Shown one piece after another: positions 825-61,536 of a stretch of 64,000 nt of DNA; position 1 is the first letter of the stretch, and each line of letters begins with the position of its first letter. A program made the translations under genes and the position numbers. The stretch is from positions 25,546,001 through 25,610,000 of the forward strand of contig CM119371.1 of NCBI GenBank assembly GCA_051294905.1. The letters run 5' to 3'. The notes beneath the pieces are model-generated. The model was not told the origin of the DNA. It saw only the letters and a program-made list of their open reading frames with translations, and did not search any database. This DNA is from Botryllus schlosseri. Lineage: Eukaryota.

Positions 825-832
825 GTCTAACC

Positions 833-7622: not shown

Positions 7623-8156
7623 AATCGTCAGCAACTAGTAGAGAATTGGAAAGAACATTGTATATCAACAATCGTATCACAAAATATGACGTCACCAGCA
7701 AGAAATTTCGAATGAGAGAGCGTTCAATGTACTATTTTTAGGTGATACACGAACTCCTTTTGTTGACAGAGTTTTGGTTGGTGTATTTTGATAAAAGTTG
7801 ATTCCAAGGCACACAAATGGAATTGTGAACGGCCTCGACCTACGATTCGAAATCGGTCGTCTCGATAATTATTCGCACAAATCGGATTATCCAACAGATG
7901 TTTGCCGATGGCAGAATTAATTGCCTTTGATCGATCAGCATCAATCTTAAGTGGATGAGTTAAGGGTGAGCTTTTCACATCGCGTGACGCACGTGTTCTG
8001 ATAAATCTGGGGACATGTTGGTTTATGCGGTCCTGCAGACGTCTTGACGTTCTTCCCACGTAGCCACAATCACAGTGGCACCTATATTCGTACACTACAT
8101 TACTTTGTTGAAGTGCAGGAAGCACGTCTTTGCGTGTTGAAGGGAGCAGTTGTGTT

Positions 8157-8190
8157 ACCCCTGACGAGTGTCAGCCGAAAATATTCGGGT
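8157..8190 (+). ncRNA. Minimal type I hammerhead ribozyme (Penelope-associated)
   Basis: ACCC-CUGACGA-G(ugucagc)C-GAAA-AUAU-UC-GGGU: intact core, helix I ACCC/GGGU, palindromic AAUAUU helix III. Confidence 0.75.
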
Positions 8191-8347
8191 TCATTTCAAT
8201 ATGAATATACTATTTAATTGTATAATTGAAATCATGGAGCAAATGTTTTCGTTGGGAAAAAGATTGGTTTTATCGTGACGACCGCAAAAATAGGCATCGG
8301 ATCCATACAGCATGATGGTATATTTCAGTATTCGGGTGTATGTAATC

Positions 8348-8985
8348 CAGGGGTTACAAACTTTTCGGTGCGCGGGCCGGATTCAAACATGTTGATTAAT
8401 CGCGGGTCGGACTAGTCAAAGGATTCCGAAATGTTACCCCAAAATCCATACCCGAAGAGATTTAACTATATAACCCGAACCATTGAATTTAAATATTTTT
8501 TAATCACCATTCGGGATTCTCTTCGCACCGGGGTTCTGGGCTTTGTGTATGTAAGGGCAGCTGCGATCACATTTATTGGAGTTATATTATTCGTCTAACT
8601 ACATTAGTCTCCGTGTACGATGTAGCTAACATGCAACGGTATTGCTTTGGTGTTTTCGCCTCTGTGAATAATCAGTTTGGCCCATTTGTCCGGAAACCAC
8701 TGTACTGAGTGTGCGCTTATATGCTCTATCGAAATATTGTGTCAATTTCAACGACTTGTTCGTATTGGTGACTTGAGTGAAACAAAAAAGTGCCGTGGAA
8801 TGGTTATAATGTGGCTATGACCATGTACGACATCTGCTCTCTTTGTAACGTCAAAATATTTCTTACTCAAAATGTCAACTTTTGTTGGAAGTGCGGGATA
8901 TTACAAGGGTTTTGCCAGTTACTCAGAATTGCTTCGCAGGCCGGATGAAAGCGCCTGGCGGGCCGCAGACCTTCTGATACCCCTG
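8348..8985. mobile_element. hAT (Buster/Charlie-type) MITE
   Basis: CAGGGGT...ACCCCTG termini; TSD ATGTAATC. Confidence 0.88.
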
Positions 8986-8998
8986 ATGTAATCGGTAC

Positions 8999-9092
8999 CT
9001 GCATTCCTTTCTGCCGTTGCAGAACTCTTCAGCACGAATACACCTCCTCGAAGGGTCGCGACATTCGAATTCCGAAGCGGAACAATTAATCT
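8999..9092 (-). CDS. LDLa-repeat gene, A-type exon
   Basis: catttcag|AG ATT AAT TGT... = INCSASEFECRDPSRRCIRAEEFCNGRKEC, ends AG|gtaccg; 94 nt; partner B exon not found in the window. Confidence 0.85.
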
Positions 9093-12000
9093 CTGAAATG
9101 AACCATGTAATTAAACCATTCCGTGTGATTATATAATGTATTGCCTCATCGCCGATCTCGCTGTTAAGGCAGCGACTTAGTTAGCCGAGCTCCAAAGTCG
9201 GCAGCAGAGACCCGAGATCGTATGTAAGAAATCGAGAATGAATGAAAGTGTGGGAGTGCGCGAGCACGACAAGTCGTCTTCAAGAGCAAAAGAGAAGATA
9301 CTCAACTGTACCAAATGCATTGCCATGGCGCACAAGGCATGAACAGGCGATAAGCGCCAATGTTGTTGTGTGTGATAATAACAATAATATATACCAGTTA
9401 TAACTGACCGTGAAATCAGGAGCGACCGCCCAGATATGATAATTAAACTAAAAAATAAAAGAGAAGGCTTATTCATTGAACTGGCCGCCCCAGCTGATCA
9501 TAACATATTACAAAAGGAATCAGAAAACCAATCGAAATACGCAGAGCTCAAAATGGAATGTGAGAAAATGTGGCGATGCAAAATGAACATTAGGGATGGT
9601 GTGAACGTGAGGTTCACGTTCGCGTTCTGTGTGTGAACATCGGAAATTTAGAGGTTCGCGTTCACAACAGAACCTTGGTAGGTTCTACACTGTGAACCTT
9701 TTTCATATATTACAATTTTTACTTCATTACAACATCTTTAGTTCATATTTATTGCATTTCAACTGCGGGCCACTCTATACACGGCGCTGGCAGCATTAAA
9801 AATCAACACTTAACGAGCATGCACCTTGACAATCTCAAATGTTTTACTTGCTTTGTTACAAAAGTTTGCTCGAAGTATCCAGGTTTCCGTTGGTGAATAT
9901 TTAGTGACTCTCTGTTGTGAGTTTGACCCGCATTCAAAAACATCACGAGCAAAATACGTAGTCAGCGAATGATGCTTATTCAACCAATCAATGAAATTGA
10001 TATCGTTTTCTGATGAAAAAGATGTAGCAGGCGTACGGGGTCAATCTTGACTTCATATCTTGACTGCATCAATAAAACCAAATCCATGCGATTGAGGGGT
10101 TGGCCACTGCTGTATAGTGTATAACTTGTTAATGGGGTAATATTTGTAGCGAGTTTAGAAACCTGTTTTACACTCAGCTCAATATCAATGTAGCGATACT
10201 CAGACGCCGAATACATTGTCCGGTCTGGTCTCGACCGTTAGGCCTAAGTTTATCTTCCCTGGTAAGTCCTCGTCGGAATTGTTGGCAAAGCGACGGAAGA
10301 TATTGATTTTATGGGAGTATTATATCCTTTAATTGCCTCAGTTGATACATTTACGGTGAAGATAATAAAGTTGGATTAGCAATAAAGTTGATTAGCGCGT
10401 TCGTCAGGATTTATCAACCCAGGATTAAGGAAACCGGTTGATCGCGGCGCATAAAGTTAGTGTTAATCTCATGATTTAACAAACTGGAACAATGTAGATT
10501 TCTAGTTATCTATAGAAACTGCGTACCATTCCTACGTCCAATTATTCCGGATAATGACCGTGCCGATTGTCTCCTAGGTTATGGTTTCACTATACAATCA
10601 ACGAATTATGTATTCCCACCCGTCATTGCAAAGCGATATCCGTTTCTTAGCGGTACCGTACGAATTGGACATGACTTTCATTTCGCGATGATGATAATTC
10701 TACCTGTTACAATGACAGTATCGTCATTAGCAGGCGGCTGCTTCATTATGGAGATTGCGGAGATTGATTCATTCACCAACTAGCAGCCTATGTATAACGC
10801 ATTTTCGCATTTTGATGCAACAGATACACTTGATTGAAAACTCGGGACACCGCGACTAACCATCGCGCGTAACCTTCTCCAACTTCATGCGTCACGATTA
10901 GCAGTATTTAATCACACGATTAGCATTCTTTCGGATCAGCTAACTTTATTATCTCCACCATCAGCGACGTTTAAAACACCAATATGTACTTCGGAAATGT
11001 GGCATTATGTGGCCCGAGTCGTCGGTAGGTATCGTGTACATTAATATAGGCTATCACATTATTGGAAGATAGGGTTGGAATTAGCAATATGACGTCGACG
11101 TCACGTGACGTCATGAGGTTCACGTTCGTGTTCACACAGAACCTTTCAAAAAGGTTCGGGTTCACACGAACCTGAACCTTTCAGAGGTTCACACCATCCC
11201 TAATGAACATTGTACCAATAGTAATTCTCGCTACAGGGATCATAAGCAAAAAACTCATGAGACAAATCCAACGGATTCCGGGTAACATTCGATCCGACAT
11301 GATCCAAAAGATCAAGTTATTGGGCACTGTGCATATTCTTCGGAAGGCCTTGAATGCACCATTGAACTTGCGCGCATGAATCACAGCATAATTTCTGTAA
11401 CTTTGATTCATCATTTTCCTTCATTTCTACCTCTGCTCTGCAACCCTTGCCAATTCTTTACCTACCGCAATTTTGTAATCCGACCTCTGCATGTATTGCA
11501 TTGGAATAACAATTTGACTGTATTACTGAAATTTTATAAAAATACCTCAATTTCGCTATATTCCTTTGGGGACAGGTTGCTGCCCGGATTATGTGTATAT
11601 TTACCAGTATTACTGTCAATAAAGAATACAATCATAGCATAATGTATTAGTTGAAAATCACTGATGATCGATGCGTCGTCGTGAGATTGGACGGCACTCT
11701 GCAGAATTTTGGAAAACGTGAAATGTAACTCGTTATTTGGGTGTCGGAACTTGGAAACAGAATAAACAGTAATTTAATCGGCGGTGAATTTATCGGAAAT
11801 TGCAATATGAATCTTCGTGACAAGCACAAAACGAATAATTATAATACAAATACAAGTGGTCAAGCTTAGCAAAACCATTCACCTCTAGATATCGATCAAG
11901 GCGAACATCCGTAATATATCTTTCAGCGTTGGACCAAGTCAGTACTTACGAGTCACAAGTTATACAATGGTTTTGTCATCACCCATTAATCTCTACGTCA

Positions 12001-15000
12001 GGGGTTCTCAACCCGCGGGCCGCATGCGGCCCGCGGCCTCTTTCATTACGGACGCAATTACTACTGGCCCAGTATTATTGCATATTAATTTAGCTACTTA
12101 GCTCTCTTATCGCACCGTCGCTGTTTCGTTTGAATCCCATTCTTTGACGTGCTCTGGTCTCTTGATATGTACTCGAGTTTAGATTGTTATTGTTCTGAAT
12201 CAGTATTGGTATGGACCTTTAATTTTTCACTAGTCTGCGTGCACTCACCAACTCACCGCACGCTCCCTTGGACAACAGTGCGTAACGACTGAAAGAAAGG
12301 TCATCACATCGGCTTTTTTGTGCGCCCCGCCGATTTTCTGTGCGTGGCGACTTTGTCAGCAGTGTGCGGCTGCGCACGCGCGCAGCTTGAATTTGATGAA
12401 TTTGCTTTCTCATATATAAATAGAAAACCTATATTCGTCATATTTATCGAAGAACAGTTGTCGTAACGAAGCGTAGAAGCTTAAAACGATACCACTAAAA
12501 TTTATTCTAGGTTACATATTACCTGATCTTAGAAAAAACGCTACCACCTAGGCGTCAAGCACAGTAATCCGTAGTTCGAGGAAAAATATTAAAATTGCCG
12601 ACGACGTTACAGACGCTTTGGAATATCGCTAAACCCAAGAAATCTGCTAGAGAAGGTTGTGATTTCACTAATACTTTAACATACTGTGCGAATATTCTCT
12701 GTTTCCGGGACTTAGCAGCAATGTTTCCTCCAAGCTGGGCACGTGCGCAAATGCGCAGTGCTGACACGATCTGTGCGCGCAGAAAATCTAAGTTGCGCAC
12801 AAAAATCCGAAATAGTGACATCTTTTATAGTCTTTACGCACGATTATCCAAGGGTCTGCGCATTAAGTTGGTGAGTGTGCGCAGACTCGTCAAAAATTAG
12901 AGGGAACTCTGCTTAGCAGCAAGGACAACATTACCTGACAAATTTTGAAGCTAAAGTTGTCCGATTCAACCGTGACCAGAAGAGTAGCACGCCGACATTT
13001 TATCGCATGTTCTGAAACACGTTGCCGTGTATACTACTTTAGCCTAGCATTGGACGAATCCACCGACTTCACAGACATTGCATGGCCAATTTTCTTGGTG
13101 CATTTTATCAGAGTGGACATATTTGCTGAAGGAATGCTGGCATGGCAAACGTGGGGAGGTGGCCAGCGAAAAACATCAACTTGACAAAGTTGACTTCTGT
13201 AACTAGTGGTGGAGGGCTCCAGCTATGGAAGGAAAAGACATGGGTTAATTGGTTTGCTCTGAAATGACCCCGAAACGCCAGACTTCTTCTCATTTCACTG
13301 ATAGCTCAAAGTGATAATGGCCTCCGTTGTAACAAAAAAGTGCGTGTGTTGTGACGCACAATAAGGCCTAAACGGCGATAAGCGTCACAGTAATACCGTG
13401 TGTAATAATAATAATAAGGTACATATACCGACTTGGAAATGAATGCAATGCACTCTAAATGAAATGATTTACTTGCAACGCCAGAAGATGCATATTCTCA
13501 CAGAAAACAGCGATTGAATACATACGAACGCTGTCCAAGTGACTATTAATGCTTTGAAATGCATAAAAATGGACTATAGACGCCCGTATACGACTAATAA
13601 ATAGGCTCCAGTAGCCTACATTTGATAAAAGCTCACAAATGCACGGTAACAATGTTTTGCGGCCCGCAGCGTCTTTTGCGGGCAAAATGCGGCCCGTTGT
13701 ACATGCGAAGTTGAGAACCCCTGCTCTACGTATTAGTTTAGCATTGCGAAGATATCATAATATTTTACAAAATTAAACAATTAGCTTTGCGTTGCTGATC
13801 GAATTAAATTATCTTGCAGAGCATAAGACATTCGTTTTCATATGCCCCTTAATATGATTAATTACACTGGTCAACACAATTTTTGTTGTCTTTGATCAGA
13901 CAATTGATTTTGAATAACTTCTGGACGCAGCATTTATGAATGGCTTCCGTTTTTCGCTATCACGTCAATTTTTTGTGTTAGGCACCCACCACATTGTTTC
14001 GTAGGCCACATAAAAGTACTACATTAATATTTTGGGTTTACTGTATAAAACGCTTTAAAAACCACCAGCAGTCGAAAGTAAATCAATAGACATCAAATAA
14101 ACATTTAAAATGCTTTATTCGGTCGATTCGAATTGATATTGCTTCTGCAGGACAAATAAAGTGCGAGTTTCAAGGTCCCAATTTACCCTAATAACTAGGG
14201 CCATTTAAAGTCATTAAAGTCATATTTTTTTCTCTGCATCAGTAAGTCGTACAATCAATTTTAACGTAAAAACCGCATCCCTATGGGGTATATTAAGAAA
14301 GTTATAAAGTCATATTTTCCTGGTTAGGTCATATTTGAGTTATAAAGTCATATTGTTGTATACTTTAAATAATAAGTGCCAATTGAAGCGGTGAAGCGAT
14401 TAAGCACTAAGTAAGGCAAACTACAAGGTTAGCCTACATAACATTACAGTCACAGACCTATGAGGTCACACATTGCATTATGTGGTCAGATATTGCATCA
14501 TGTTGCTACAAAATTTATTTTACTTCTGTGCACTGAAGTGGGGCGTCATTTGAAGTTCAGTCAGGGGGCAGGCAAGCTAAAAAGCTCAGTCTTGGTCTAC
14601 TTATGTACAAATACATTACAACTAGCAGCGAACTGAAGAAGATAACAGTTGAATATATACAGTTCACTTCAAGTTTATTCATAAGAGACTTAGACACAGA
14701 GAGAATATCTGGTTCAGCATTCCAAAAGTGAGAGAATCTAATGCAGCGAAAGTCAAAGCTATTGTAAATGAATTTAAGGACTTCAAAATCTCCCCTACAG
14801 AGAAAGTGTCCTGTCATATATGCAGTTGCATTGTGAAGCATGAGAAACGTATTTTTGTTGAACAGCATCTTGCAACACTCAAGCATAAGATATGGATTGA
14901 AGCAAGAACGACCCCCTCTTCAGCTCTGCAACAAGCATTCTCTGCAACTGTTATGTTGTGTGTGTTTTACTCGTCAGTTCCATGAGTTGGTTACAGGTAA

Positions 15001-18000
15001 AATACACGATTTTCACATAAAGTCATATTTTCCAAAAAATAAAGTCATATTATTGATTTTTTAAGGTCATATAAAAATGGCCCTGCTAATAACCCATAAT
15101 TTTGTGGGTTGTCTCGTTTGATACTGGAGCAATAGTCATCTAACATATGTAAGCTCCAATCTTCTCTGGTATCTTACCTCGAAGATCTTCAGATATTGTG
15201 GGACACTTTCCCCTTGCCCATCGCTGACTATGCAATGTTTTCCGGGAAATTATTTCGATATTTTAGCTTTTGAACCACTTTAATATCAGTAATTGCTGCA
15301 AACACTTTTATTTGAGAAAAAAAGATGACTTGACCATGGTGTATAAATATATAGCCAAACGCATATAATATAATGCTAACTTACATCAGCCTCATTTTTC
15401 TGCATCGAAATGTAGGTAAAGTTGGTCAAATTGCAGGGCAAATGAGATACCCGACGTTAGAAGCGACATGATGGTAATCTGTAAGCGTCTCTACTTTGAC
15501 GCAAAGTTATTTCCTTTGAACATAACGATATATGTATCCAACGGAAGCCTCATCGTGTAAGAAGTTAGTGGATGCCGTTCGGTCTATGTTTCGTAAATCC
15601 AACCATCAGTTTATGTCACGTGACATTAGTAGTGTTGTTGTTGCACGGCCCAATGCTAGTCTTTTCACGTGGCGAGGGGGCGTTCAGATACCCCTCCAAC
15701 TTGAGTCGGAATTCTTGAGTCGACCCTGGTCGGATTGGAACCCGCAAAACATTGGTGTCGCAGCTGTGGAAAGTACCACAACCGCAACGCTATCTCGCCA
15801 CTATTACTGAGTATCGTAAAACAATTATTGAGTCTGATGTTTCATTGACTGGTAAATTAAAAATAGAAATATTCCCACAAATCGTTAAATATTAAGTTTT
15901 CAAGTGTTCGTATATAATCTGCAGTGCACATAAACGGTTGATACTCCACAGCGGGGGTGTCAAACATACGACCCGCGGGCCGCATCCGGCCCGCCAGACG
16001 ATTTCAGCCGGTCCGCGAAGCGACTCCGAAAAATGGCTGTATTATGCAGCTCATTTCTGAAAAATGTTGAAATTACTTTCACTAAATAATCCCTCAAGAC
16101 AGCCTATGTATGGTATGTTCATATGTTCATAAGCCACATTATAAGCATAAACATCGGACAGAGTGGTGTTGTGGTTTCACTTTAATGCTAATCAGCAACT
16201 AATCGCTGCCATTGCCAGCTAATTCCGAGACGGTAAAATTGCACACTGAGCTCAGCGTTTTGTGGAAAAATCGACCTAAACGTAGTTAGTGACAAAAGTG
16301 AAAATCCAAGTTAGTATATGCAGGCTACATGGAGAACATAATTGTTACAAAAAAAAATATTTAAAATGCCTCTGGTCGCACTTCATTTTCGCTAATGACA
16401 GCTCCTCGGCTTTCAGAAAAAACGAATCGCGATATGATAATAATGAATCAAATTTCATCGTCTGCGTTTTCAATTAAATATCGTGTATTCCTCACAACGC
16501 ATACACACGACTATTGGTAGATTATGACTGAAACAATGCCATTATAGCAATATGCGAACGTATACCGTCGTCATAGTCACTGTTTTAGTAATTTATATAA
16601 ATGTATTCAATCGAACAATTATCGTCGTTTTGCCAATTCCATTAATTACGAAGAAAGTTGAAAGAATAGACTCATAGGCTGTATAATTGAGTATTCAAGT
16701 GGGCAACACGCCTCACAGGCATGGATTTTGAGACAACATTTTGGAATAATGTAACTGGTCCGGCCTTCGATCGATTTGAAGGTCTGAATCCGGCCCGTAA
16801 CGCAACTTGAGTTTGACACCCCTGCTCCACAGTGTAAATTTGATGTACTTAATGCTAAACTCCAATGTATACAATTTTCAGACCTACCTGATCTGCACAG
16901 ATACTTTCGTTTATGTTGGAGTTCAGGTGGAAGAATACATAGTCTGGAATTTCCCCGCCGTCTTCTACACAGTGTGCTGTCATCTTCATTTAACGGATAT
17001 GGCTCGTCAGATCCATCTCTAGCAAGGTTATATAGCAGATTTGGAATGCCGGCACAGGGAAAACTAAATAATAACTGAGATCATGCCTTGCAATGAGTCA
17101 TGAGTCATGAGACATGAGTCACCCAAGATTGGAGATAGACCGATTTAATGAATATAATATTAAATAAATATTCCAAAGCATATTGCACGATCCCAAAATG
17201 GCTTGTAGTTCCATCATTCGATCTTGTAATGTTCACCAAGCTATATTTATGTCATGTGTTTATTCCTATACCAACATGTTTATTATTATCCTGTTCTAAA
17301 CAGTACTGGCTTCTAATTCTCCGATATCAATAAGTGGCATTCTACAACTTTCACATTTTTGCGCAACTCGTTATATTTCAGTAAACTCCGTTTGAAGCCA
17401 CACTGCCTACTTCTTAATATTAGAATGTGTCTAGTAGGAAGTAACAATAAGTTTACCATATTTTGGAATAGGGGCGCTTTTTTGAAATCAAAAAAGTTTA
17501 AAAAGTTCACCGAAATAAAAAAGGCATATTTTCAAATATTTACGCGAAATATTGTTATGTAGACTATTTCAAAAAAAGCTCATCTTTCCGACTCGACTCC
17601 CGATTGACCCACTCGAACTTCCGCATTATAAATATTACGTCTTCTGCGCCAATTTTCAGTTGACCTTATCCCTTAGCCTTGCTGTCAAAGCTGTAAATGG
17701 GAATAATTTCCGAAACGGAGAACATTTAAGTGTCCTTAGACGACATTTTCGATTTCCTGAAAAAGGAGGACATGTTGTAACCGTGTGGATAGTATATAAA
17801 TACGTTTGCCTTCATTCCCCTTGGCATTGCGATGATAGCCAAACAAAGCAAGCATGTACGACGCTAACAATTTAATAACTTCGAAAATTACACCTGATAC
17901 TTGTAATTTTGCGTTATTGCTGAATATGCATGTCGTAATTTTGAACACCAGAAAAAAGCATTGCTAAACAAAAACCAGATTGAGTCTAACTATGTATTCG

Positions 18001-51000: not shown

Positions 51001-54000
51001 TGTTACCCAGGGAGAAAATATATTTTCAAAAGAAAATGATTAGTTACTCTAGGTAAAAGTATTTTTCCATGTGCAAATAGTTTTTTGCTGTAGGAAAAAA
51101 ATAGATTTGTAAACGACAAGGGTTTGTTACTCTAGGAAAGGATAGATCGCCAAGTGAAAACGATAATTTTACACAGGTAAACGTCAGTTGTCCAAACCAG
51201 TATGGTATTTTTGACTTGGGTAGGTATCTTGTGTTCAACGCTGGTAGTGTGATTGGTCTTGTTAAACGCAGTTTCCGAGTTGTACAATATACTTTTCGTG
51301 CTTATACAATTACGAAGGGGGCGGAAAATGAAATTGCTATTATGATCGTCAGAAGATTGTTGTATGTTGATTTGATTTGTCGGAGTAGCAAACCTATCAT
51401 TCGCATATGACAAGCAAAATCATTACTGCGAATACATGTAACTAACTTGTTCGGTCTCTATCAACGCAAAAGAGATGATTCGTTTTTGAAACCGTAGCGA
51501 AGACCACATGTAAATCTATGCGATAGACTTCTATTTCCTTACATTCAGTCGTGTCGTGTCCATTTTAATACGGGGGCCCACAGGTATGACATGCACACAC
51601 TAACACCGTGAACAGAAATCGATGATTTTGATTAATAAAAATATTTCTTGACTACATCGGAATGTCTATGTTGTAGAAAGTAAATACTTTTATGGTGTTG
51701 TGTGTTTAATGAAGGCGATTGGTTACAAGTATGTTTTGGGAAAATAAAATTTATTTATCTGTATGTGGCAGTTTGTGAGGAAATGAAAATAGATCCGTGG
51801 TTTTAATTGGTTTGTGACTGTGTTGTTTTAATGTACAGGTAGACTTGACACTGAACAACAATTCGACTCACAAAAAATGTTTGTTGTATGATTTGTCACT
51901 GGTGCGCAAAGCGTTAGGAATATTTTTGTATGATAATATCTTCTAGCTTTTTTGTTGTGAGGGCAATCATACGACGACTCAGAACTTTTCGTTAGCAAAG
52001 TAGATTGATCGATATGAAAGATGTAAGGACCGTGACTAGAAATATGTGTACTTTGTTGTTGGAGTAGCTGATTTACTGCTATGGCATTGACATAACCCGC
52101 TGGAAGTGAGTATGCTTTTCTTTCACGAAAGTTTACGTGGCTCCGTTGTAATAAATTTGTGTTAACTAAACTCGGATGGATACCACAATTGTGCTGGACT
52201 TACACATGGTATTCGTATACTGTACACATACAAACTTTTGTGTAAACAACTCTGGTGTTTCTGTTAATACTAGTTCTGTGTTGAACTACTTGATTATTAA
52301 GATACATGAACAACCATTCAGACAATAAAGTTCTTGAGGTATCGAAACAGTTTGAAAGCACCACCAATCATTGTACAGGTTTGTAGCATGGGAATATCGA
52401 TTATTTTCGTTTACCATGAATATATTTCATATACCTTTGGTAAGAAATGAGTTGCGTGGGGTAATCATAAACAACCTACAAAAGTTAAACTTGTAGCGTT
52501 TGATTGCCTACTTTTTTATCATTGTTTGTTGTTAAAAGACGACTGAGTTTACATTTACACATAGTAAGTGGAGAAACTCAAGTAATAAATTTTACTCGGT
52601 TGAAAATATCGATCAATGGAGTAACAGTATCAATATGAGTGGTATATTATTTTTCGCGATATGCAACAAACCTTCTAAGTAAACTTGTCAAAAATTTATC
52701 ATGTCATAGTCGGTTGTTATGAAATCGAAACAAAAGTACTTTGATTATCACGACAAAGGGAGTTGAGATGAATGCAGTATTTCGGAAGTGAATGTGTATC
52801 GTTTGGTATGTTCAGCAATCACTAAATGACCAAAATATCAAACTGTGCATACAACTCGGTTAGTTAAACGATAGAGTTACAAGTCGGATGTAATCTCGAT
52901 TTACAGATGACAGCTTGATGATGTAAAGCTCAACCACTCAAATGTGTTCATTGCAAAGTATTTGACACAAACAAAATATCGAACGAAGACCCAACACTGG
53001 GTTTCATTACCGGGTGAGTGAAAATTGTTTCCTGTTGGCTAGGTATGATTTGCATTTAGAAAAAACGATCTACGCCGATTAAGCGACACTGTTTAATATC
53101 CGATGAGTGAGTGAAATTTCTTAGGGTTTGATTTAGCGTGTTAATTACCGGCGATTCAATGACATACAAGTAAGATCTTTTACGGGATGAGTATTGTGAC
53201 AACATATACTTTGACGAATGACAATGGGGGGGGGGGGGAATTTCCGATTTCTTTGGTCGTGAGCGTTCTACAAATATTTCCGGCAAACATTTAGCAAGCA
53301 ACCTACAATATTCTTTTGTTATGGTAATGACTTTCGCAAGTTTGGTTTTATGATTACAATTACTTATTCAAATGATAATTTATGATCACTAACAACAATA
53401 CAAACACATTTTGTAGATTTCAGTGTAGCGCCTATTGCGATTTTGTTAATGCTATGAGTTTTGTGTATTACTCAAGTCTAGTAGAATAGGATGCGTCCAG
53501 TAAAGATATTCCAAATTGCTTCTGTGTTGATCAAAGTCTTGAAGTGTAAATCTGTAGACTTCACAACGTCTTAGAGAGTGCGAACGGAATTATGTATTGA
53601 TCGCACGCTTCAAACGGTACTCGATACCCAAAGTGATATTTTCACACTCTGTAAGTTGTGTATGTTTCAATGCGCTGTCACAAATCCCGACAATAAATCG
53701 TATCAATTGCTGGATTCAATAGTAACGACGTGCCATTGTGATATACTGACTCTACACTTAGTCGTTTCAATTACCCGTTGCGAATTTGACCAATAAAGCA
53801 TTTTGCATCGGGTGTTCAATGTTTGAATAACGAAATTGTTGTGTCATCTTTATTCTTGGTTACTGGCAACAACTACATTTGTAAAAATATTTTCTGATAT
53901 CCGTAATACGCAGAGTGATTTGTACCAACACGGAATATCTTTCAAATCAAGAACATTTCAGGCGCGCGTAGTTTTACAAATCAATATGTTAATAACAATG

Positions 54001-57000
54001 TTTCTGAAAAGTTTGTTGGTATCGTAATAAGTTTTAACACAACCCCGGTCTAATTACGTCATAATTTATTAATCAAGTCGTGATCAACTATTACAAAATC
54101 TCGTATGTCAAACCAACGTGTTAATAAGAATGTTTACAACATGATAACTTTCAATGTAACACCGGTGTTCGATCGTAAGAAATGAATTCTTAACTACATC
54201 GGTCAGACATTCAAATATCATATACTCAAAACATATGTTAATCTCAAGTTGTGCGCACCGAGTAATAATTACTTTAGGTTACAGAATAGTAACGACTTTT
54301 ACAGTTGAATAAAAAAATACGAGTTGGCGGACTATGAATACAACCGAACTTGTTATGGATTTTGGATTGTGGTGATTACTCGCGTAGTCTTGTCTACTTT
54401 TCATAAGGATACTGTTGAGTTGGTTGGGTAAGTTACAAACGGATTGACTTGACAAGGTTTTTGTATTTTACTCTTTTGTGTATGGCAAGATGTTAAAATG
54501 TTGAGATATTATAGTGATAGTATTTCTGAAACTATCTTCGCCAAACGGAAAGTTCGATCGCGAATATAGTTGTAATATTTCATTACTTGTTTCAAATCAA
54601 TATGCGTATAATTTCGAAATGTGACTGGGTGAAAGTTGGTAGTTATGTTTGTCAATCTATTTCAATTCAGACTATGTCAAAGTCGAGATATTTCATTTCG
54701 GATTATCTGAATTTACCTTCAGTACACCCCGCGAATGGATTCCGACGACGCACTATAACATTTTTGATAATAAGGACTCAAGGATTTTCAATCAATAATA
54801 GACCCACCTGATTTTTTTGGTAATGCTAGAGTTGGCAAATGATAAGTTGCGTGTTTTTATTAAGCGTTTGATTTCTCAATAATGAATACAATTATTATAT
54901 GCGCATACTTGTGATTCTTGATTCTCATACAGCTAGTTGGTATTGATTATATAGGTGTGAAAAGAGCGGCGTGGAATGTGTGAATAATTCGATGTGGCTG
55001 AAAGTCGGCGTCGGTAATATTCAGGTTACGTTCGATTCAAAAGATTACGTTAGAAAGATTTCTCAGAGGATAATGGTTGTGCCGAATCAACACATTCAGA
55101 TACGAATGAACTTGATTTGTGTAGTGAGTTTCATTTCGATACTGTGTCAAAGTCAAAATATTTCGTTTTTGATTATCTCAGTTACCTGTAGTACATCTGA
55201 CGAACGGATTTAAAGTTGGCAAATTACCAAAATGATTGAATATTATCGGGTTAGAGATAGTTTTTTATTGATTCTATAAGTGTTAAAACAGCGGCGTGGA
55301 ATGTGTGAATGATCCGGAAACGGAGTTGAAAGTTGGTCAAGTCAAGTAATATTCAGTTTCAAAAGGATTATACTCTTAAAAAGATTCGAGTTATACCAGC
55401 AATTGACAATTTGATAGTATTCAAGTCGCCGCCGTTGTGGTTCTGTTATTCGTTACCCTTGTCAGTGAACGTATGATTTTACAATTATTTCACACCTATT
55501 TGAGTATGCGGTAACCGCACAAAGGATTAGGGTTAGGACGGAAATAAGTGACAATTTGTTGCTATTCAAGTTACCGACACTGGCGGTTCTGTTAGTCGTT
55601 ACTTATTAAATCTTACCAGCGAAATCAAGTTCTGTGACAAACTGATTACTAAAATTTCACCGCGTGAGCGATCGGTATGGTTATGACACCAAGTCGTGAA
55701 AGATGACCATGTCTGAGGTGTTATCTTGTGGGCGATCGTAGGATTTTACAAATATTTCACACCTTTTTGAAGTGTTAGTATGTGAACGCGGCTATTGTTG
55801 GTATTTGAATCACCGTCTACGCCGGCTCTGTGGCAAACTAAATTCCTGAAAGTACGACTGGTCACCGCAGCCATAAGACACCACACGAGAGATACCTATA
55901 CCCGAAAGTACGACATGTCAGCGCAGCCTACACCCGAAAACGTTAGCATACGACCGATCCCTATCTCTGTAACGCTATCATGCGACCGGAGCCTATACCT
56001 GAAAATACGACTCACCAACGCCGCCTATACCTGAAAATACGACTCACCAACGCAGCCTATACCGAAAGGGTGGGGTCACCGACGAGACGGCAGGTCATCA
56101 GCGATAGGGACTCGAAAAGGGTGGAGTCACCAACACGAGTTTTCACGGCAGGTCATGAGCGAGCCCTATACCTGAAAGGGTGGGGTCACCAGAGATCCCA
56201 TAAGAAACAATGGCAGGTCACCAGAGATCCCGTAAGAATACATGACAGAGGCTCATTCACATGACTATTTACTTGATACATATTCAACACGAAGTACGAC
56301 ATGCCAACGCAACCATAAGCCACCACACGAGAGATGTCTATACCCGAAAGTACGACATGTCAACAACGAAGCCGCGTGCGACCGATCCCTATGCTGAAAA
56401 GGGTTACCGTGCGACCACAAGACACAATAGCCGCTTGCCACCCCCGCCATAAGAGATAATAGCCGCTTGCCACCCCCGGTTTCCCAGCCGCTTGCGACCC
56501 CCGCCATAAGACATAAGAGCCGCTTGCCACCTCCGCCATAAGACGCAATAGCCGCTCGCCACCCCCGCCATAAGACATAAGAGCCGCTCGCCACCCCCGC
56601 TTTCCCAGCCGCTCGCAACCCCGCCTATACTACCCCAAAAAAGCGCACACCACGACCGATCTACTACACTACTCTTGTGCAAATGAACTGTAGGCTTGTG
56701 ATAAACAGCAAAATCATGTTTTTTTCTCGAAAATAACATCATACTATTTATATAGAAATTTTTACCGCATAACGCTTATGACGATACTTTTGGTGTGATC
56801 GCAACATTTATGGCACCAATATGAAGAAACATATATTTTATGATCATATCACGTCCAGCATCTAGCGCAGGGACGGGCAACATACGGACCGCGAGCCGGA
56901 TTCGCCCCGAGACGGAATTTTGATCGGCATGCAGAGAGTTTCCACCTTCAAATTGAAATACGTATCTAAAAGTACAGACAAATTTTATCTGCCAAAGAAT

Positions 57001-60000
57001 GGATCCAAGTTTTCCAACCCGATAAAGACTATCATGAAACGACTTGTTTTGTTCGGGTCTACGTATATATTTACGAGCAAACATTTTCGACCATGAACAA
57101 TTAAACAACAGCAAGACAAGGCTGCATACCAATACAACTGGTGATATGAATTTTAGGGTTGGAGCGTAATGCTTTGATAGCAACGAAACACTCCTTGCTC
57201 ATCAAAAAACCAGCCTTGTCGACAGGGCATCCGCAATAAGAATGCGCCAAATCAGATAGCCGAGCTTTAAAAGCAGGTATATCATTGTCCGATTTATGAC
57301 CAATGTCAGCCAAAAATATTCGGGTCCATTCCAATATGAATGTACTATTCAATTGTAAATTGAAGTTCTGTACCTACAAGAAGCTGCTCAAATAGTGGTT
57401 ATGTATATCACAGGATAAATGGATTTCGTGGCGAGGTTTCAATCTCTGGATTGGGACAAATCAGGGAAATACTTTGGAAATTTTTGATCCAAACGACTGT
57501 TTACTAATTTGATGAAACTAAGAACTTCAACTTCAAATCGAGAAGGTTTCGCAGACAGAAGTCACCCTGATTGACGTTACTATCTCCATATTTTTATTTT
57601 TTCCACAAACCCCAACAAAACGTCTCTAAACAGCAATATATTTGTATCAGCAGGTTATGGGAAAATTGGCAATGAAAATGAATTTTCACACTACGATAGT
57701 TCATGTCAGACGATTATTATGATGATATGAGGTTTTAGCAGTTGTGGTGCGAAACTGCCTCATGCTTTCTCAAATTAAAAACCGAAGTAAAAATTAGGTT
57801 ATCAACCATTTTAAAAATTTTGAGGTCTCGCGGACCCCCTGAAATTGCTTCGCGGACCCTTAGGGGTCCACGGACCCTTAGGGGTCCACGGACCCCCGGT
57901 TGAGAACCGCTGGTATAGGGTGAATAATATGAATATAGCTCCTCTGACGAAAGATCTGTACTATTGCTGTTGAACCGACTATTTTTAGGGTTCCAACCTT
58001 CTCATATCGATATGCGTCGGCTATATCTGGTAGTAATTGTCCGTAGGCTCATACAACATGTTTTTTGGAAAGTATTTACACAATTATGCCATAATTTTGC
58101 AACTTGAAAAAACACAATTTTTTTTAAAGGAGACTTTGTTTAAAACACCGTTTGTTTTAAATGCAACCCTAGTTGCATCACATGATATCACAGCTTCGTG
58201 TGACGTCTGTGTTTGCAGTTAACTTAAAATTAATTTGGCGCTCAGAAAACCGCAGCCATTAAGATGTCTACGCCAGCCTTGCTAAGCATAATTGCACTCG
58301 ATTGTTTTGGGTGAAAATTTATAGGATGATTGTCTAGTATTTTCAAGTAGCTATGAGTTAAATATATTAAATTCTCACGACAATCACTATTGCATTGGAC
58401 GTACAGAATATTTGTTTCGTCGCCATTTAAAGAATGTAACAATTCAGTCCTTGGTATCGACATTTATACATGATTCAAGATACGTTTCCCACTTGAGAAC
58501 TGAAAATTATTCATGCAAAACGCACAGTCTATTTTCGCGAAGTTCTATTCCCTGATCCTAAATGAACTAGTTAGGAAATATATCTGATTGGAAATTAACC
58601 GCTTGCATGAGTAAACAATATAACTTAGTAGTTCGTCAGGTATGGTTACCTGCAATCTCTACCTCCGTCGCAAAAGTTTGAAGCTGGTATACAGCCTGAT
58701 CCATCGCGGCATTCGAAATCTTCTTCGGCACATTTCGATTCTAGCGAAATATTGAATAGATAAATTGAATCGTTCATTTTGTTTCTACATGTAATGTACG
58801 GCCGGAATCTTATCACTAACGGACTCTTGGGATGTCGTTATAACCATAGGCGCCGAGTTACGGGGTGGCGGGGTGGCGCAGCCACCCCATGACAGATTTA
58901 TGGGGTGGCGGCCACCCCATAAAATAAGATTGAACGCCCGCCGTCTGCGATTTCAAATCACCAGTGCTGTTAATTAGCGAGTCCGTGATAGCGCGTAAAT
59001 GTCAACTATTTATCGTTAACCGATACGCGCGCGAATAATTGAATACGCGGCTTCGTCAGCGACGACTAACTATAGTGCTTAAAACGCCCTAATATCCGTG
59101 AAATCCATGATTAGTAATCAGACAATCGAAGCAACCTCGTTTACGACGTGGATTTCGACAAGCTTGTGCTGAGAAACAGCATCTCCTATCGCGATTTGAC
59201 GACCAAATATACGTCCACCTTCTACAAATGATAGTGCGTTATTTGCATCGATGAGGGCCGCAAGCCGCGTTTAAAATATTTTGTGAACCATTTTTGTGAT
59301 AAATATTCTCGGAGCGCAAAGTTGAACAGTGTTTTATTATATGTGCCTGCTAGTTGGAATGTATTCCAGTGCCCATAATAGTATTCCAATCCAATTACGC
59401 TTTGCGAACGTACATCGGGAAATGCAGCAATGAAGTCAATATCGATGTTTTAGTCAGCAACCAATTGTCGCGATTCTACTAAGTAAAAACTCATTGTGTT
59501 GGCGGTAAGGCAGGGGCGGGCAACTTCTCCAGTCGGCGGGCCGGATATGGGAAAATTAACTACTTGGCGGGCCGGATTGCTGCATTGATACATTATTCGC
59601 TCATTTATCCACGTATACAAGGAATAAATCGTATTTAATGGATGTATTTTGACGACAGCAATGTCACTTCAAAGCCATTTCTCGCCGATAATTACGAAGG
59701 CAATGTGGATTTGAGAATAGCTACTCACACTCGTATCTACTCACAGCTGATCAATGCACACACGGTGCAATCCCGAATTAAGATTTCAAGGCGTTCGATA
59801 AGCCCGGTACCCCAAATTTACCAAGATATCTATTTTATTAAGGTTGAGTAGGTGACGAGATAGCATCGTTGATCAACTGTGTGGCCAAATTATTCTCGAT
59901 ATTGAATTCATGCGGCCCGCGTCCTCCACGAAATTTGAAAATTGGCCCGCTACCCGTCTTGAGTTGGCGACCCCTGGCATAAGCGGTGTTTTACGGAAAG

Positions 60001-61337
60001 CCTAGAAGTGTACCGTGCAACAAGTCGGCGGTTACGGATTCAAAAATAAGACATATCAGCCTGGTGTGAATGATCATTGTAGTCGACAAACACCATGATT
60101 ACCACAAACGACATTAGGGTTGAGTACATCGTGAATGCCGATAATGCAAGTCTTCTCGCTTCGACGAACTTACGCGTAAGTTCCACTCTCGCCCGCTGCG
60201 CAATTCGCATACACGTATATAATAACATACAGTCACTAAAATTTGACGTAGTAAGCAAGTAGTGGGGAGCTGCGGGCCACATTATCATGTAAGACGGAAA
60301 ACTGTCCGCGGGCCGGACAAAATCCTTTCGCGGGCCGGATCCGGCCCGCGGGCCGTATGTTGCCCACCCCTGCGGTAAGGGATAATTACTGATTGGTCGC
60401 GCGCATTTGTAATCATCATTGTTGTCTCTCTTTCGTTTTCCAGAATTGGTGCGCCGTGTTAGAAGTCAAGCGATGAATACCGAGCGCTCGGCAATCAATG
60501 ATCCAATTTAGCAATCGTCTCAGCGGGAGATAGCGTCACGTTGCATTTGTGCGATATGCGTGTACAAACGAATTTTGCTAATTGGCCGCTGCCGCACGTA
60601 ACCCTGATAATACGACTTGTTGAATTGCAACTGAATATTAGCATCAGAATAATCATTTCAAAAGGACGGAGTTTTGTGTTTGAAAAGGAGGGGGTTTCGA
60701 CACCTCCCTGACCACGCGACTGCCGCCACCCCATGCAAAAATAAAAGTCGGCGCCTTATAACTATATGTAAATAGCAACTGTTTGCTTCCATACTAGCGT
60801 ATGTGATTTAAAGGAAAATTAACCGTCTGTTACCAAGCTTGTCATACTGTTCAACGAATAGTTATGGCTAATATGAGGAGTCTAAATATGTGTATTTCAG
60901 TGTATTGTCAGGGTTTAAATCTCTACTATCGCGTTCGATTCCTTCCTGTCGTTCTCCATTAAACTCAGCCACAGCCGAGGGTAATCGGGAGTCGAATGTT
61001 ATTTAAAAATTACTTTAATTTCGTTATTTCCCTTTGGTTTCTGTTAGATACGGGAAATGAAGCCCGAACGAAGGACGTCACCCCGATGGCTGAGATCCAC
61101 ATGTTCGCGGTGGTGATTAGTCATGAAATTAAATTTGCACCATAAACATTTCGTGTGAACCATATCAGATTGAATGGATTAGATGTTTGTTAATAATTAC
61201 CAGCTTTGCATAACGTATTTCGGCGTTTTTGTAGCTCGGGCGGGAAGATACAAAGTCTGTGTGGATATTCCAAACTTCTGCACAACCTGTCATCGTTACA
61301 ATCATGTTTTGACGCATATCGTTCGTCGGATCCGTCT
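8999..61337 (-). CDS. Partial multi-exon gene encoding tandem LDLa-like Cys-rich repeats (secreted or receptor ectodomain). Exons in transcript order: 61201-61337, 58650-58740, 36110-36249, 27677-27767, 27140-27276, 22949-23039, 22415-22548, 18614-18704, 16888-17018, 8999-9092
   Basis: All ten exons have AG/GT boundaries with alternating phases (A: 1 to 2, B: 2 to 1) and join into one open frame of 1137 nt. A exons read Cx6CxDGSxCx6CDGxxxC (the last is a variant); B exons read DGSDE-Y...LCR...LCI(L/F)P..L...R..LC. Additional unrecognised exons are possible. Confidence 0.88.
9591..11202. mobile_element. hAT (Ac-type) non-autonomous element
   Basis: TIR TAGGGATGGTGTGAAC; TSD ATGAACAT; GTTCAC/GAACC subterminal repeats. 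Confidence 0.92.
10355..10959. mobile_element. Nested TIR element, family unassigned
   Basis: GGTG(A/G)AGATAATAAAGTT inverted at both ends; TSD unclear. Confidence 0.5.
11999..13723 (+). mobile_element. hAT Buster/Charlie internal-deletion derivative with transposase remnant
   Basis: TIR CAGGGGTTCTCAAC; TSD CTCTACGT; remnant LSDSTVTRRV..YFSLALDESTD at 12945-13184. Confidence 0.9.
12719..12911. mobile_element. ~190-bp hAT MITE; related copies at ~12219-12390 (inverted, partial) and 44335-44519
   Basis: Termini CAATGTTTCCTC / GAGGGAACTCTG; TSD CTTAGCAG. Confidence 0.8.
14196..15085 (+). mobile_element. hAT derivative carrying a CGGBP1-like zinc-finger transposase N-terminus
   Basis: TIR (T/C)AGGGCCATTT; TSD CTAATAAC; AAAGTCATAT subterminal repeats; PKVRES..VNEF..CHICSCIV..KRIFVEQHLATLKH at ~14719-14890. 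Confidence 0.85.
15660..15799 (-). mobile_element. tRNA-derived SINE 5' part
   Basis: B box GGTTCCAATCC followed by GACCAGGGTCGAC..GAATTCCGA..GTTGGAGG, shared with the copy near 45150. Confidence 0.55.
15952..16824. mobile_element. hAT Buster/Charlie-type MITE
   Basis: TIR C(A/G)GGGGTGTCAAAC; TSD CTCCACAG. Confidence 0.88.
16888..17018 (-). CDS. LDLa-repeat gene, B-type exon
   Basis: ccttgctag|A GAT GGA TCT... = DGSDEPYPLNEDDSTLCRRRRGNSRLCILPPELQHKRKYLCRS, ends G|gtaggt; 131 nt. Confidence 0.9.
18614..18704 (-). CDS. LDLa-repeat gene, A-type exon
   Basis: ttctttctgtcaag|GA ATT AAA TGT... = IKCYDEQLECRDGSKCLRFAQFCDGSIDC, ends AG|gtacac; 91 nt. Confidence 0.9.
18863..19792. mobile_element. 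hAT MITE with GACTT/GACTC subterminal repeats (duplicate at 23574-24509; relative at 62110-63178)
   Basis: TIR CAGTGTT(G/A)GGAT; TSD TTTCAAAC. Confidence 0.9.
20029..21587. mobile_element. Related hAT MITE with GACTT/GACTC repeats (duplicate at ~24746-26313)
   Basis: CAGTGTTAGGAT...ATCCCAACATTG termini; degenerate TSD CTACTTTG/ATACGTTG. Confidence 0.8.
20642..21209. mobile_element. Nested hAT MITE (duplicate at ~25359-25941)
   Basis: TIR CAGGGTTGTAA; TSD CTGTATAG. Confidence 0.9.
22415..22548 (-). CDS. LDLa-repeat gene, B-type exon (duplication copy 1)
   Basis: DGSDEPYATYGDNGTLCRRIKYSEPGLCILPLSLRHIRHHLCSD; 134 nt; A|gtaagt donor. Confidence 0.88.
22949..23039 (-). CDS. LDLa-repeat gene, A-type exon (duplication copy 1)
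   Basis: Identical to 27677-27767; 91 nt. Confidence 0.88.
27140..27276 (-). CDS. LDLa-repeat gene, B-type exon (duplication copy 2)
   Basis: DGSDEPYATYGDNGTLCRRVKYLEPGLLCILPLSLRHIRHDLCSD; tttttctag| acceptor, A|gtaagt donor; 137 nt. Confidence 0.9.
27677..27767 (-). CDS. LDLa-repeat gene, A-type exon (duplication copy 2)
   Basis: ttctatag|GT ATA CAC TGC... = IHCSMEEFQCSDGSRCIDPRGFCDGYKHC, ends AG|gtattg; 91 nt. Confidence 0.9.
28591..29046. mobile_element. Degenerate hAT MITE, same family as 29829-35665 in opposite orientation
   Basis: CTGGGCA..TGCCCAG termini, TCGA-rich subterminal repeats, reverse-complement similarity to 29829-30240. Confidence 0.6.
30990..32699 (+). pseudogene. Disrupted accessory ORF of the P-like element
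   Basis: MTSQVGD.. then frameshift/stop ..NILEYMAGFTLRK.. [MITE] ..GALVYPG..IGLFLRVLGHSFANK..KGSQGTRGDLK*. Confidence 0.6.
31467..32274. mobile_element. hAT Buster/Charlie-type MITE inserted in the accessory ORF
   Basis: TIR CAGAGGTCTCAAAC; TSD AGGTAGA(C/T). Confidence 0.9.
33879..34104 (-). pseudogene. Exon encoding the C-terminal half of a THAP domain
   Basis: tttttaag|NTICDLHFRPEDII..WLKLGAIPCLNLP..G|gtaggt, matching THAP CxxHF and the AVP box. Confidence 0.75.
36110..36249 (-). CDS. LDLa-repeat gene, B-type exon
   Basis: ttttgacag|C GAT GGG... = DGSDETQYATFDNSNQTLCRGKSAGGAFLCILPLHLEHERLKLCRI, ends G|gtaagt; 140 nt. Confidence 0.9.
36452..37616. mobile_element. hAT Buster/Charlie-type MITE with a nested MITE at 36757-37077
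   Basis: TIR CAG(T/C)GGTTCTCAACC; TSD CAATAGAT; nested element TSD ATTT(G/A)GAC. Confidence 0.9.
37946..39360 (+). CDS. PIF/Harbinger (HARBI1-like) DDE transposase, 3 exons: 37946-38284, 38347-38556, 38836-39360 (357 aa)
   Basis: Phase-0 GT-AG introns give one open frame; motifs FRARYRF, GISQPTVS, GAIDCTH, NRKGYFSVNCQ, GSAHDSRIF, GDQGYP, IERAFGVLK. Confidence 0.93.
40477..43175 (-). pseudogene. Harbinger Myb/SANT (trihelix) partner gene with a +1 frameshift
   Basis: MDSEKRGEKRTNYSEYEKELLVNLV..SAWKK/IQMDFN..KLRVLYKNMKTKAAK..KTGGGP; extra base in the T8 run at 43024-43031; last exon 40477-~40810 ends in a coiled coil; middle exons uncertain. Confidence 0.82.
40873..42152 (+). mobile_element. 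hAT (Ac-type) deletion derivative in a Myb-gene intron
   Basis: TIR TAGAGCCCGACCGAT; TSD CTTGTGAC; ATCGG subterminal repeats; dimerisation-domain remnant W..NEERFPILA..VPSERL at ~41740-41830. Confidence 0.88.
43207..46553. mobile_element. hAT Buster/Charlie-type element with truncated right end and three diverged ~350-400-bp internal units
   Basis: Left TIR CAGTGGTTCTTAACC after CTCTAAAC; CAGCGCCCCC subterminal motifs at both ends; right TIR absent. Confidence 0.6.
44890..46386. mobile_element. Composite hAT MITE (same family as 59511-60372) with a nested SINE (~45110-45384) and MITE (45659-46010)
   Basis: TIR CAGGGGCGGGCAAC; partial TSD GGCTAT; SINE B box at 45162-45172 and (AAAC)n tail; nested TIR TAGGGTTAC. 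Confidence 0.8.
46915..47115. repeat. GC-rich ~33-bp subterminal tandem repeats (mirror copy at ~56420-56630)
   Basis: TTATGGCGGGGGTGGC(A/G)AGCGGCT(C/A)TTATGTC repeated. Confidence 0.9.
50655..51230. repeat. 41-42-bp tandem repeat array in the unique core of the Polinton-like element
   Basis: Unit ~CAAGTGAAAA(T/A)GGTTTGTT(G/A)C(T/C)CAGGGAAAAAATATATTTC; cleanest units start at 50780, 50821, 50862, 50903. Confidence 0.85.
57100..57395 (-). mobile_element. Second Penelope-like fragment (pre-RT coding piece plus inverted pseudo-LTR)
   Basis: FKARLSDLAHSYCGCPVD..AIKALRSNPKIHIT; 57304-57392 matches the reverse complement of 7522-7610. Confidence 0.75.
58650..58740 (-). CDS. LDLa-repeat gene, A-type exon
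   Basis: tttcgctag|AA TCG AAA TGT... = SKCAEEDFECRDGSGCIPASNFCDGGRDC, ends AG|gtaacc; 91 nt. Confidence 0.9.
58845..60755. mobile_element. hAT-like MITE with GCCACCCC subterminal repeats
   Basis: CATAGGCGCCGA...TCGGCGCC; TSD GTTATAAC / TTATAAC, right tip eroded. Confidence 0.75.
59511..60372. mobile_element. Composite hAT Buster/Charlie-type MITE
   Basis: TIR CAGGGG(C/T)GGGCAAC; TSD CGGTAAGG. Confidence 0.9.
61201..61337 (-). CDS. LDLa-repeat gene, B-type exon
   Basis: ttttgtcag|A GAC GGA TCC... = DGSDERYASKHDCNDDRLCRSLEYPHRLCIFPPELQKRRNTLCKA, ends G|gtaatt; 137 nt. Confidence 0.9.
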
Positions 61338-61536
61338 CTGACAAAAAAATGCCTTGGATTATATTTCATATTTTGACGCACATGGTTGATCGCATTGGGT
61401 CCTCGGAACGTTACGGACAATTTTTGACTACCCGGCATTAGTGAACGTTATGTCTCGTGTATTAAGTCTCATCTCGCGTTAGCCCTGTCCCAAAGTTACT
61501 GTCAAACTGATCTCTTTTCTTCAGTATCCATTAGGC

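Follow-up and report, generated by a model that had tools for sequence, protein, structure and literature searches.

Receptors that carry LDLa modules at the N-terminus were defined in tunicates by Kamesh et al. in 2008 as the LDLRR-GPCR family of G-protein-coupled receptors (GPCRs), with 14 members in Ciona (PMC2396169). In the excerpt of that paper used here, the repeats of the Ciona receptors are mostly classical six-Cys LDL-A modules, the expressed sequence tags of the family come mostly from blood cells, and lipoproteins or large complexes are proposed as ligands (PMC2396169). The LDLa module itself is characterized by three disulfides and a calcium motif (PMC4561518), while the closest solved seven-transmembrane (7TM) relatives of such receptors are the type C LGRs (RXFP1/RXFP2 and the snail GRL101). 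Here we describe a stretch of 64,000 nucleotides from Botryllus schlosseri (assembly GCA_051294905.1, contig CM119371.1, positions 25,546,001 to 25,610,000; hereafter the window), in which ten short exons on the minus strand very probably encode the N-terminal arm of a class A GPCR of the LDLRR-GPCR type, with an LDLa array, without leucine-rich repeats (LRRs), and built from a repeat that is a fused LDLa pair. This degree of confidence covers the identity of the gene and the origin of the repeat, ligand and activation being outside it. The part that appears new is the fused repeat with eight or ten cysteines (8-Cys and 10-Cys units); the architecture of the family has been in print since 2008 (PMC2396169).

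The window gene and the Ciona family, as far as the excerpt describes the latter, are alike in having N-terminal LDL-A repeats (eight N-terminal modules in our model), a 7TM region resembling the INSL3/relaxin receptors, no LRRs, a lineage-specific expansion, and no known ligand. They differ in that none of the eight N-terminal modules here has the sixth cysteine (C6) near the SDE motif, seven of them being 8-Cys fused units, and in that the family is larger than the 14 members of Ciona, with 79 genome matches to the exon of the third transmembrane helix (TM3) and 26 loci linked to repeat exons.

The exons are of two alternating types, A exons entering in phase 1 and leaving in phase 2, and B exons entering in phase 2 and leaving in phase 1. 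They were placed by six-frame motif scans and, where several donors fitted, the donor after the last cysteine with the best consensus was chosen. In order of transcription, they are:

61201..61337 (-), exon B1, 137 nt: DGSDE acidic calcium-site tail of unit 1 plus the putative decayed second-LDLa half (cysteines Ca, Cb and Cc, with one extra Cys)
58650..58740 (-), exon A1, 91 nt: LDLa C1-C5; PF00057 at 30.4 bits, above the cut-off of 24.1
36110..36249 (-), exon B2, 140 nt: 57 genome matches at E<=10
27677..27767 (-), exon A2, 91 nt: LDLa C1-C5; PF00057 at 24.0 bits, E 4.4e-05
27140..27276 (-), exon B3, 137 nt
22949..23039 (-), exon A3, 91 nt: coding sequence identical to that of exon A2
22415..22548 (-), exon B4, 134 nt
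18614..18704 (-), exon A4, 91 nt: LDLa C1-C5; PF00057 E 0.014, below the cut-off
16888..17018 (-), exon B5, 131 nt
8999..9092 (-), exon A5, 94 nt: LDLa C1-C5; PF00057 E 7e-05

Each exon is preceded by AG and followed by GT, all phases match, and the join of 1,137 nt encodes 378 amino acids with 41 cysteines and no stop, which bears out an earlier, sequence-only reading of this DNA that a hidden gene of ten exons spans the interval. The same reading gave eight cysteines per ~75 residues for each A+B pair; the units are indeed of 74-77 residues, with cysteine spacings of 6, 5-6, 6, 5, 17-19, 9-11 and 13, but only four complete pairs lie within the window and the first unit has one additional cysteine. 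The partner of B1 (A0, 67775-67685) is found to the right of the window, and that of A5 (B6) lies ~4.3 kb to the left of base 1. A tyrosine that had been called invariant is present in all five window B exons and in 18 of the 22 B exons of this genome that were aligned, and is thus common rather than invariant.

The motifs matched five A-type and five B-type exons in the window and none of either type in 100 mononucleotide shuffles, a control that is weakened because the motifs came from the same exons; the stronger one is that proteins of Styela clava match independently. All four A exons scanned align, without their tails, to positions 1-28 of the 37 of PF00057 (one above the cut-off), in agreement with the LDLa derivation that had been proposed, and none of the five B exons matches any Pfam family at E<=10. 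How repeats are gained can be seen within the window itself:

18832..28268 (no strand), tandem duplication: two copies of 4.72 kb, 97.8% identical, which copied one A+B exon pair

As both A2+B3 and A3+B4 stem from this one recent event, they are not independent units.

When exon profiles were run across 264 kb of stitched flank, A0 was recovered at 67775 on the right, and B6, A6, B7 and A7 on the left of the window. Still further left there are a B-type exon that runs on as an identifiable LDLa, additional LDLa-like exons, and exons bearing transmembrane motifs of the LGR type, giving the following model:

Whole window 1..64000 (-) inside, ~G000:C1:25,614,117 down to 25,449,340: predicted receptor gene

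The predicted gene has 33 exons over ~165 kb and encodes ~1,296 residues, with 21 exons (B6 to the last 7TM exon) to the left of the window and 2 to the right; its product comprises a signal-peptide candidate, seven 8-Cys units, one 10-Cys unit, further LDLa-like modules, and an RXFP1/LGR-like 7TM region. The last of these eight units in the window gene is of the 10-Cys type, and its exon start and phases are the same as those of the 8-Cys exons. From A0 onward, 32 exons have canonical AG/GT ends and continuous phases and form an open frame of 1,276 residues with 100 cysteines, six hydropathy peaks above 1.6, and no LRR motif. This 1,276-residue model is 37% identical to S. clava XP_039271686 across 1,067 residues. 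Parts of the S. clava record (XP_039271686.2, P0003) are found in the same order along the minus strand here, and the exons are also collinear with a compact paralog (C1:21.85 Mb), which let the diverged middle exons be recovered. A gap of ~200 residues before TM1 was dismissed as such, being a shorter, diverged array that is found in a paralog too. No protease, CUB, EGF or LRR motif around the window fitted the gene. For the signal peptide, candidates at 98636 (single-copy) and 83211 were dropped in favour of an exon at 68117-68060, 285 nt before A0, which recurs in two of the three paralog stretches examined; because these stretches are close copies, the support is modest. The continuation past both window ends that the sequence-only reading had called for is thus found, with a signal-peptide candidate on the right and 7TM exons on the left. 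Its suggestion of a lineage-expanded tunicate receptor also holds, given in-frame 7TM exons downstream and at least 26 receptor loci.

Given that the 7TM exons lie 90-97 kb past the left end of the window, with ~69 kb between the last 8-Cys exon and TM1, the repeat exons might belong to a separate secreted protein or truncated decoy isoform, with the 7TM exons in another transcript. Four proteins that carry the repeat without a 7TM region, namely two each from S. clava and Logan (P0004, P0012, P0001 and P0002), and the 6 of 65 B-exon places in the genome without a TM3 exon within 300 kb downstream would fit such an arrangement. It is nevertheless highly improbable: in S. clava, both P0003 and P0014 have the repeats and the 7TM region on a single chain, the phases are continuous through every exon between, and the TM-less proteins appear to stop at contig ends or at intron run-through. 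In favour of the gene model as such, the multi-repeat frame of two of these proteins is unbroken on a short Logan contig (P0001, 715 residues on 2,316 nt; P0002, 794 residues on 3,100 nt), and contigs barely longer than the protein are as spliced transcripts would be. The B exons lacking a TM3 match include those at G000:C1:41,319,173 and 41,327,678 and at C29:158,292, which may represent secreted forms, receptors that have diverged, or ends of the assembly.

For the receptor with its repeats and 7TM in one chain, S. clava provides close parallels. XP_039271686.2 (1,117 residues) has a signal peptide, repeats and 7TM, Pfam recognizing only PF00057 and PF00001 in it; this protein and the products of LOC120327042 share the unit, the module order and the clade with the window gene, at 37% and 33% identity. 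They differ in having two to four 8-Cys units, against seven here, and a longer juxtamembrane LDLa array. RefSeq labels S. clava proteins of this kind as 'uncharacterized', 'LRP-like', 'CD320-like' or 'GRL101-like', none of which recognises the unit.

The origin of the repeat becomes apparent when it is compared with related modules. With canonical LDLa (PF00057), the unit shares the C1-C5 spacing, an aromatic residue before C4, and the DxSDE calcium tail; it differs in that C6 is lacking in all window units and in that three cysteines are added by what appears to be a decayed second module. A total of 152 LDLa-type modules, from fetched proteins and the model with four near-duplicate proteins omitted, were classified as 104 canonical, 14 ten-Cys, 32 eight- or nine-Cys, and 2 other. 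The 10-Cys unit, present in Styela, Clavelina and Phallusia and thus in three ascidian orders, reads as a first module without C6 followed by a second without C1. In all 14 such units, the cysteines after Cb stand at +7 and +13 (Cb-C4'-C5'), and in 31 of the 32 shorter units, the next cysteine after Cb (Cc) stands at 13 residues, which argues that the last B cysteine is C5' and that C4' was lost together with C6'. In LDLa modules, the disulfides pair C1-C3, C2-C5 and C4-C6; C4' and C6' thus correspond to a bonded pair. Three units in proteins of Styela, Phallusia and Clavelina lack C4' only and are intermediates. Profile comparison by hhalign gave 81% between the 8-Cys and 10-Cys units, with B aligned to the second half of the latter, and 97% between the 10-Cys unit and canonical LDLa, and only 3% between the 8-Cys unit and canonical LDLa directly.

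From these data, we infer, with good support, that the B half is a decayed second LDLa rather than unrelated sequence. The sequence-only reading had proposed an extended, possibly undescribed LDLa-based repeat domain; the view of the B half as an unrelated extension fails on the two-step profile match. That reading had also held that a B half aligning to a described domain such as a degenerate second LDLa would count against a new domain. Such an alignment exists indirectly, via the 10-Cys unit, but not in a direct comparison with canonical LDLa or Pfam. The direct 3% match, the lack of any Pfam match for the B exons, a best match to PDB sequences of E 0.085, which is not meaningful, and a best ESM Atlas match of 0.78 would all suit an independent mini-domain inserted into LDLa, with the first B cysteine as a displaced C6 and the other two bonded together. 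Such an insertion is quite improbable in view of the spacing, which is exactly that of the 10-Cys unit, the intermediates lacking C4' alone in three proteins, the 81% profile match, the shared exon start and phases with the 10-Cys exon of the window gene, and the position of a 10-Cys protein as tree sister of the 8-Cys clade (SH-like approximate likelihood ratio test, SH-aLRT, 99).

A stepwise history of the repeat as a decayed LDLa pair can then be proposed. Two LDLa modules would have fused, module 1 shedding C6 and module 2 shedding C1, to yield a 10-Cys ancestor. In one stolidobranch clade, module 2 would have further lost the C4'-C6' pair and its calcium loop to yield the 8-Cys unit, with a short basic helix replacing the loop in the structural model. 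The exon pair of phases 1-2-1 would then have been multiplied by tandem duplication, and because this pair is copied in that manner, repeat number differs between paralogs. By homology, Ca would be C2' and pair with Cc, and the orphaned C4 would then bond to Cb, so the disulfides are rather likely to be C1-C3, C2-C5, C4-Cb and Ca-Cc, and one Ca2+ is predicted per unit. In the window gene, DxSDE is found in all eight modules, an Asp after C4 in six (replaced by Asn in two), and an acidic residue before C5 in five, the Asp at this place being replaced by His in three and by Glu in one. No paper on a 10-Cys or 8-Cys unit was found in the literature searched, most subscription journals being outside its coverage.

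An AlphaFold2 model of S. clava P0014 (mean predicted local distance difference test score, pLDDT, 72.8; 59-83 by block over units 2-3) shows each 8-Cys unit with a beta-hairpin bearing Ca and Cb that leads to a helix of 10 residues, with Cc at its end. In the same model, the 10-Cys unit has the hairpin without that helix, and seven transmembrane helices are present. An earlier model of the shorter P0004 is of low confidence (pLDDT 56), and with it, Foldseek retrieved only LDLa-containing chains at poor TM-scores and a wide VIA fold search returned one row (Z 2.0). In the ESM Atlas, the whole unit matches LDLa clusters at 0.92 and the B half alone matches nothing above 0.78, while phmmer of P0013 against PDB at 1e-20 found no match.

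The receptor is one of many. Two B exons used as queries gave 57 and 54 matches at E<=10 in the 495.5-Mb assembly, corresponding to 65 distinct places, and the TM3 exon gave its 79 matches at E<=0.001. At 59 of the 65 B places, a TM3 exon lies on the same strand within 300 kb downstream, making 26 distinct receptor loci, against a mean of 3.8 and a maximum of 11 in 2,000 random placements (in which a size was assumed for contig C9) and 3 with strands flipped. Twenty B places were fetched, of which 14 could be parsed as an intact B exon whose splice phases agreed with expectation, and 6 fell outside the strict pattern. At least four similar genes stand in tandem at 25.19-25.85 Mb, a near-identical gene lies ~259 kb from the window gene, and neighbouring paralogs at 25.20-25.41 Mb were examined as exon-sized pieces. 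Several relatives appear to form an intron-poor or retro-copied branch with the 7TM in one long open frame (G000:C3:18,667,620-18,669,758, C12:16,588,226-16,590,112, and others on C13, C6 and C16), and in two of these most of the ectodomain also lies within the long frame, unlike the many-exon genes here. In addition, the TM5 exon of a third paralog (L059, G000:C1:25,297,280-25,297,580) is 96% identical to that of the window gene, against 71-89% for the other exons of this paralog, possibly by gene conversion.

Beyond this genome, a profile built from 22 B exons alone found 9 matches among 1.84 billion proteins, 3 being S. clava records and 6 unnamed Logan or ENA proteins. Word-indexed protein searches with two single exons, a weak type of search, returned no match. 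As judged from sequence, the 8-Cys form is present among named proteins in Styela only, and at no fewer than 26 receptor loci in this genome. In a 7TM tree of 39 rows, none omitted and built by a quick method only, the window gene groups with 8-Cys receptors of S. clava (SH-aLRT 96), among them P0015, whose label came from a partial unit. The sister of this clade is the 10-Cys protein mentioned above, and the LRR-bearing GRL101 types are separated from every LRR-less row of tunicate type (SH-aLRT 100). P0029, the sole Ciona row, falls within the LRR-less tunicate branch in this quick tree (SH-aLRT 100).

Several observations weigh against the window gene being an intact receptor of this kind. 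The exon junctions and the link from repeats to 7TM are inferred from homology rather than from a transcript, the tree is a quick one, the direct profile match to canonical LDLa is low, and the predicted introns, up to 38 kb, are packed with mobile elements. When four bulk RNA runs carrying this species label, of which 6-13% of each was read, were mapped to window 8900-23500 at 90% likeness, depth over the B5, B4 and A3 bins was 0-0.14, with coverage confined to intronic repeats, and the predicted junctions were absent among the 15 of 48 joints listed. A search of sequencing runs likewise listed no RNA run as carrying the sequence. Moreover, dN/dS of the repeat exons against the nearest duplicate is 0.82, indistinguishable from 1 (p 0.61). 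The sequence-only reading would have abandoned the gene if spliced reads were lacking; they are lacking in these four runs, but with near-zero exon depth, the missing reads point to absent expression in those samples rather than to wrong junctions. Low bulk expression is common for cell-type-restricted receptors.

These same observations raise the explanation that the family is real but the window copy is a young segmental duplicate, silent or decaying, which the near-zero depth, the near-identical gene ~259 kb away, the repeat-exon dN/dS of 0.82, and the large mobile-element insertions in introns would favour. Against it, a near-identical duplicate would also map at 90% likeness, so the whole sub-cluster is low in those samples. 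A decaying copy is an improbable account, though, of 32 exons without stop or frameshift and with all splice sites canonical, and of 7TM exons with a dN/dS of 0.40 (p 0.022) against the nearest duplicate. In these one-to-one comparisons of paralog exons (pairs used 11/11, 8/8, 7/8 and 3/3), dN/dS against the third paralog (25.36-25.39 Mb) was 0.42 for repeat exons (p 1.2e-05; 7/8 pairs used) and 0.33 for TM exons. The differences between repeat and 7TM ratios gave p 0.14 and 0.35, and no positive selection was shown in these comparisons.

How such a receptor may be switched is suggested by RXFP1. In the excerpt used here of the study of that receptor, its second extracellular loop (ECL2) fills the orthosteric site, its ECL2 motif is C-hydrophobic-P-hydrophobic, the hinge residues Ile396, Ser397, Leu402 and Leu403 tune ECL2, and RXFP1 without LRRs has 70% basal activity (10.1101/2022.01.22.477343). 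Among solved structures, the 7TM is best matched by TSHR, FSHR, RXFP1 and LGR4, and RXFP1 is the top GPCR for a profile of 26 family proteins (E 6e-56), in which the window gene was not included. The window gene shares with type C LGRs the hinge motif and the ECL2 pattern YY-x5-C-hydrophobic-P, and differs from them in having no LRR ectodomain, a polar or basic fourth ECL2 place, and a clade of its own. Its hinge motif consists of a hydrophobic residue, Ser, four residues and two hydrophobics before TM1, with spacing as in RXFP1, and its ECL2 reads YY-x5-C-L-P, the equivalence of both to RXFP1 being by spacing, not by alignment. At the fourth motif place of ECL2, Thr, Arg, Lys or Asn is found in all 20 tunicate proteins that have the motif (21 examined), followed directly by a hydrophobic residue, and this polar or basic residue makes a simple copy of the switch of RXFP1 less likely.

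With this in mind, the array may be a stalk of variable, predicted binding sites for large extracellular protein ligands, a proposal that falls just short of evenly balanced. That binding releases a hinge/ECL2 switch akin to that of RXFP1, with the LDLa stalk replacing the LRRs as restraint, is a somewhat more doubtful one. In such a mechanism, a calcium-stabilised, copy-variable arm would bind large extracellular proteins and control a related but altered hinge/ECL2 switch. The A halves are acidic in all units and the B halves net basic in 6/7, and an Arg or Lys stands four residues before the last cysteine in 18/22 B exons here and in 11/23 in other species. This charge pattern leads to the bolder and unlikely idea that the 8-Cys unit is a self-plugged LDLa, with a basic helix in the acidic calcium cage like ligand lysines in LDL-receptor modules, and that arrays of such units, differing among dozens of paralogs in how many units they have and in their sequence, would give stolidobranch blood cells a diversified repertoire for recognition that is wired directly to G proteins.

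The significance of the locus lies in the stepwise rise of a new module from a textbook one, in which LDLa modules appear to have fused by complementary cysteine loss (10 Cys), dropped a disulfide pair (8 Cys), and multiplied as an exon pair. The unit would also define what the extracellular part of a large family of orphan GPCRs is made of, in the invertebrates closest to vertebrates; database labels such as LRP-like or CD320-like are wrong for this family. RXFP1 signals constitutively when its LRRs are missing (10.1101/2022.01.22.477343), and a natural LRR-less relative therefore offers a direct test of how such receptors stay off. The weight of these points is limited, as the family architecture is already in print since 2008 and ligand, expression and function are predicted at most.

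The introns of the gene hold further elements, and scans for Rfam families and tRNAs found no match. In the A1-B2 intron, at window 46868-56673, there is a 9.8-kb element whose inverted arms of 3.5 kb are 98.7% identical, with AGTAGT-like ends, a 6-bp flanking duplication, and no open reading frame (ORF) longer than 130 residues; it resembles a non-autonomous Maverick/Polinton-type element. A 41-bp minisatellite of about nine copies lies within it (window 50650-51210), and a relative of the element, with arms of 5.6 kb and a 6-bp duplication of its own, is found at G000:C1:25,692,117-25,706,071. A Harbinger/PIF-type transposase fragment is present at window 38803-39357 (+; Pfam DDE_Tnp_4, E 1.3e-24). 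ORF fragments at window 1036-2726 (-) and within the 3 kb to the left of the window resemble a decayed long terminal repeat retrotransposon (gag/integrase-like), two window ORFs scanned giving no Pfam match. A recurrent non-coding element with 5-, 10- and 37-bp tandem units occupies window 18860-21530, 23570-26250 and 62080-63180 and shows heavy RNA coverage from other loci. Lastly, an ORF of 164 residues resembling a C2H2 zinc finger (L017, G000:C1:25,503,194, -) lies in an intron of the receptor gene, on the same strand.

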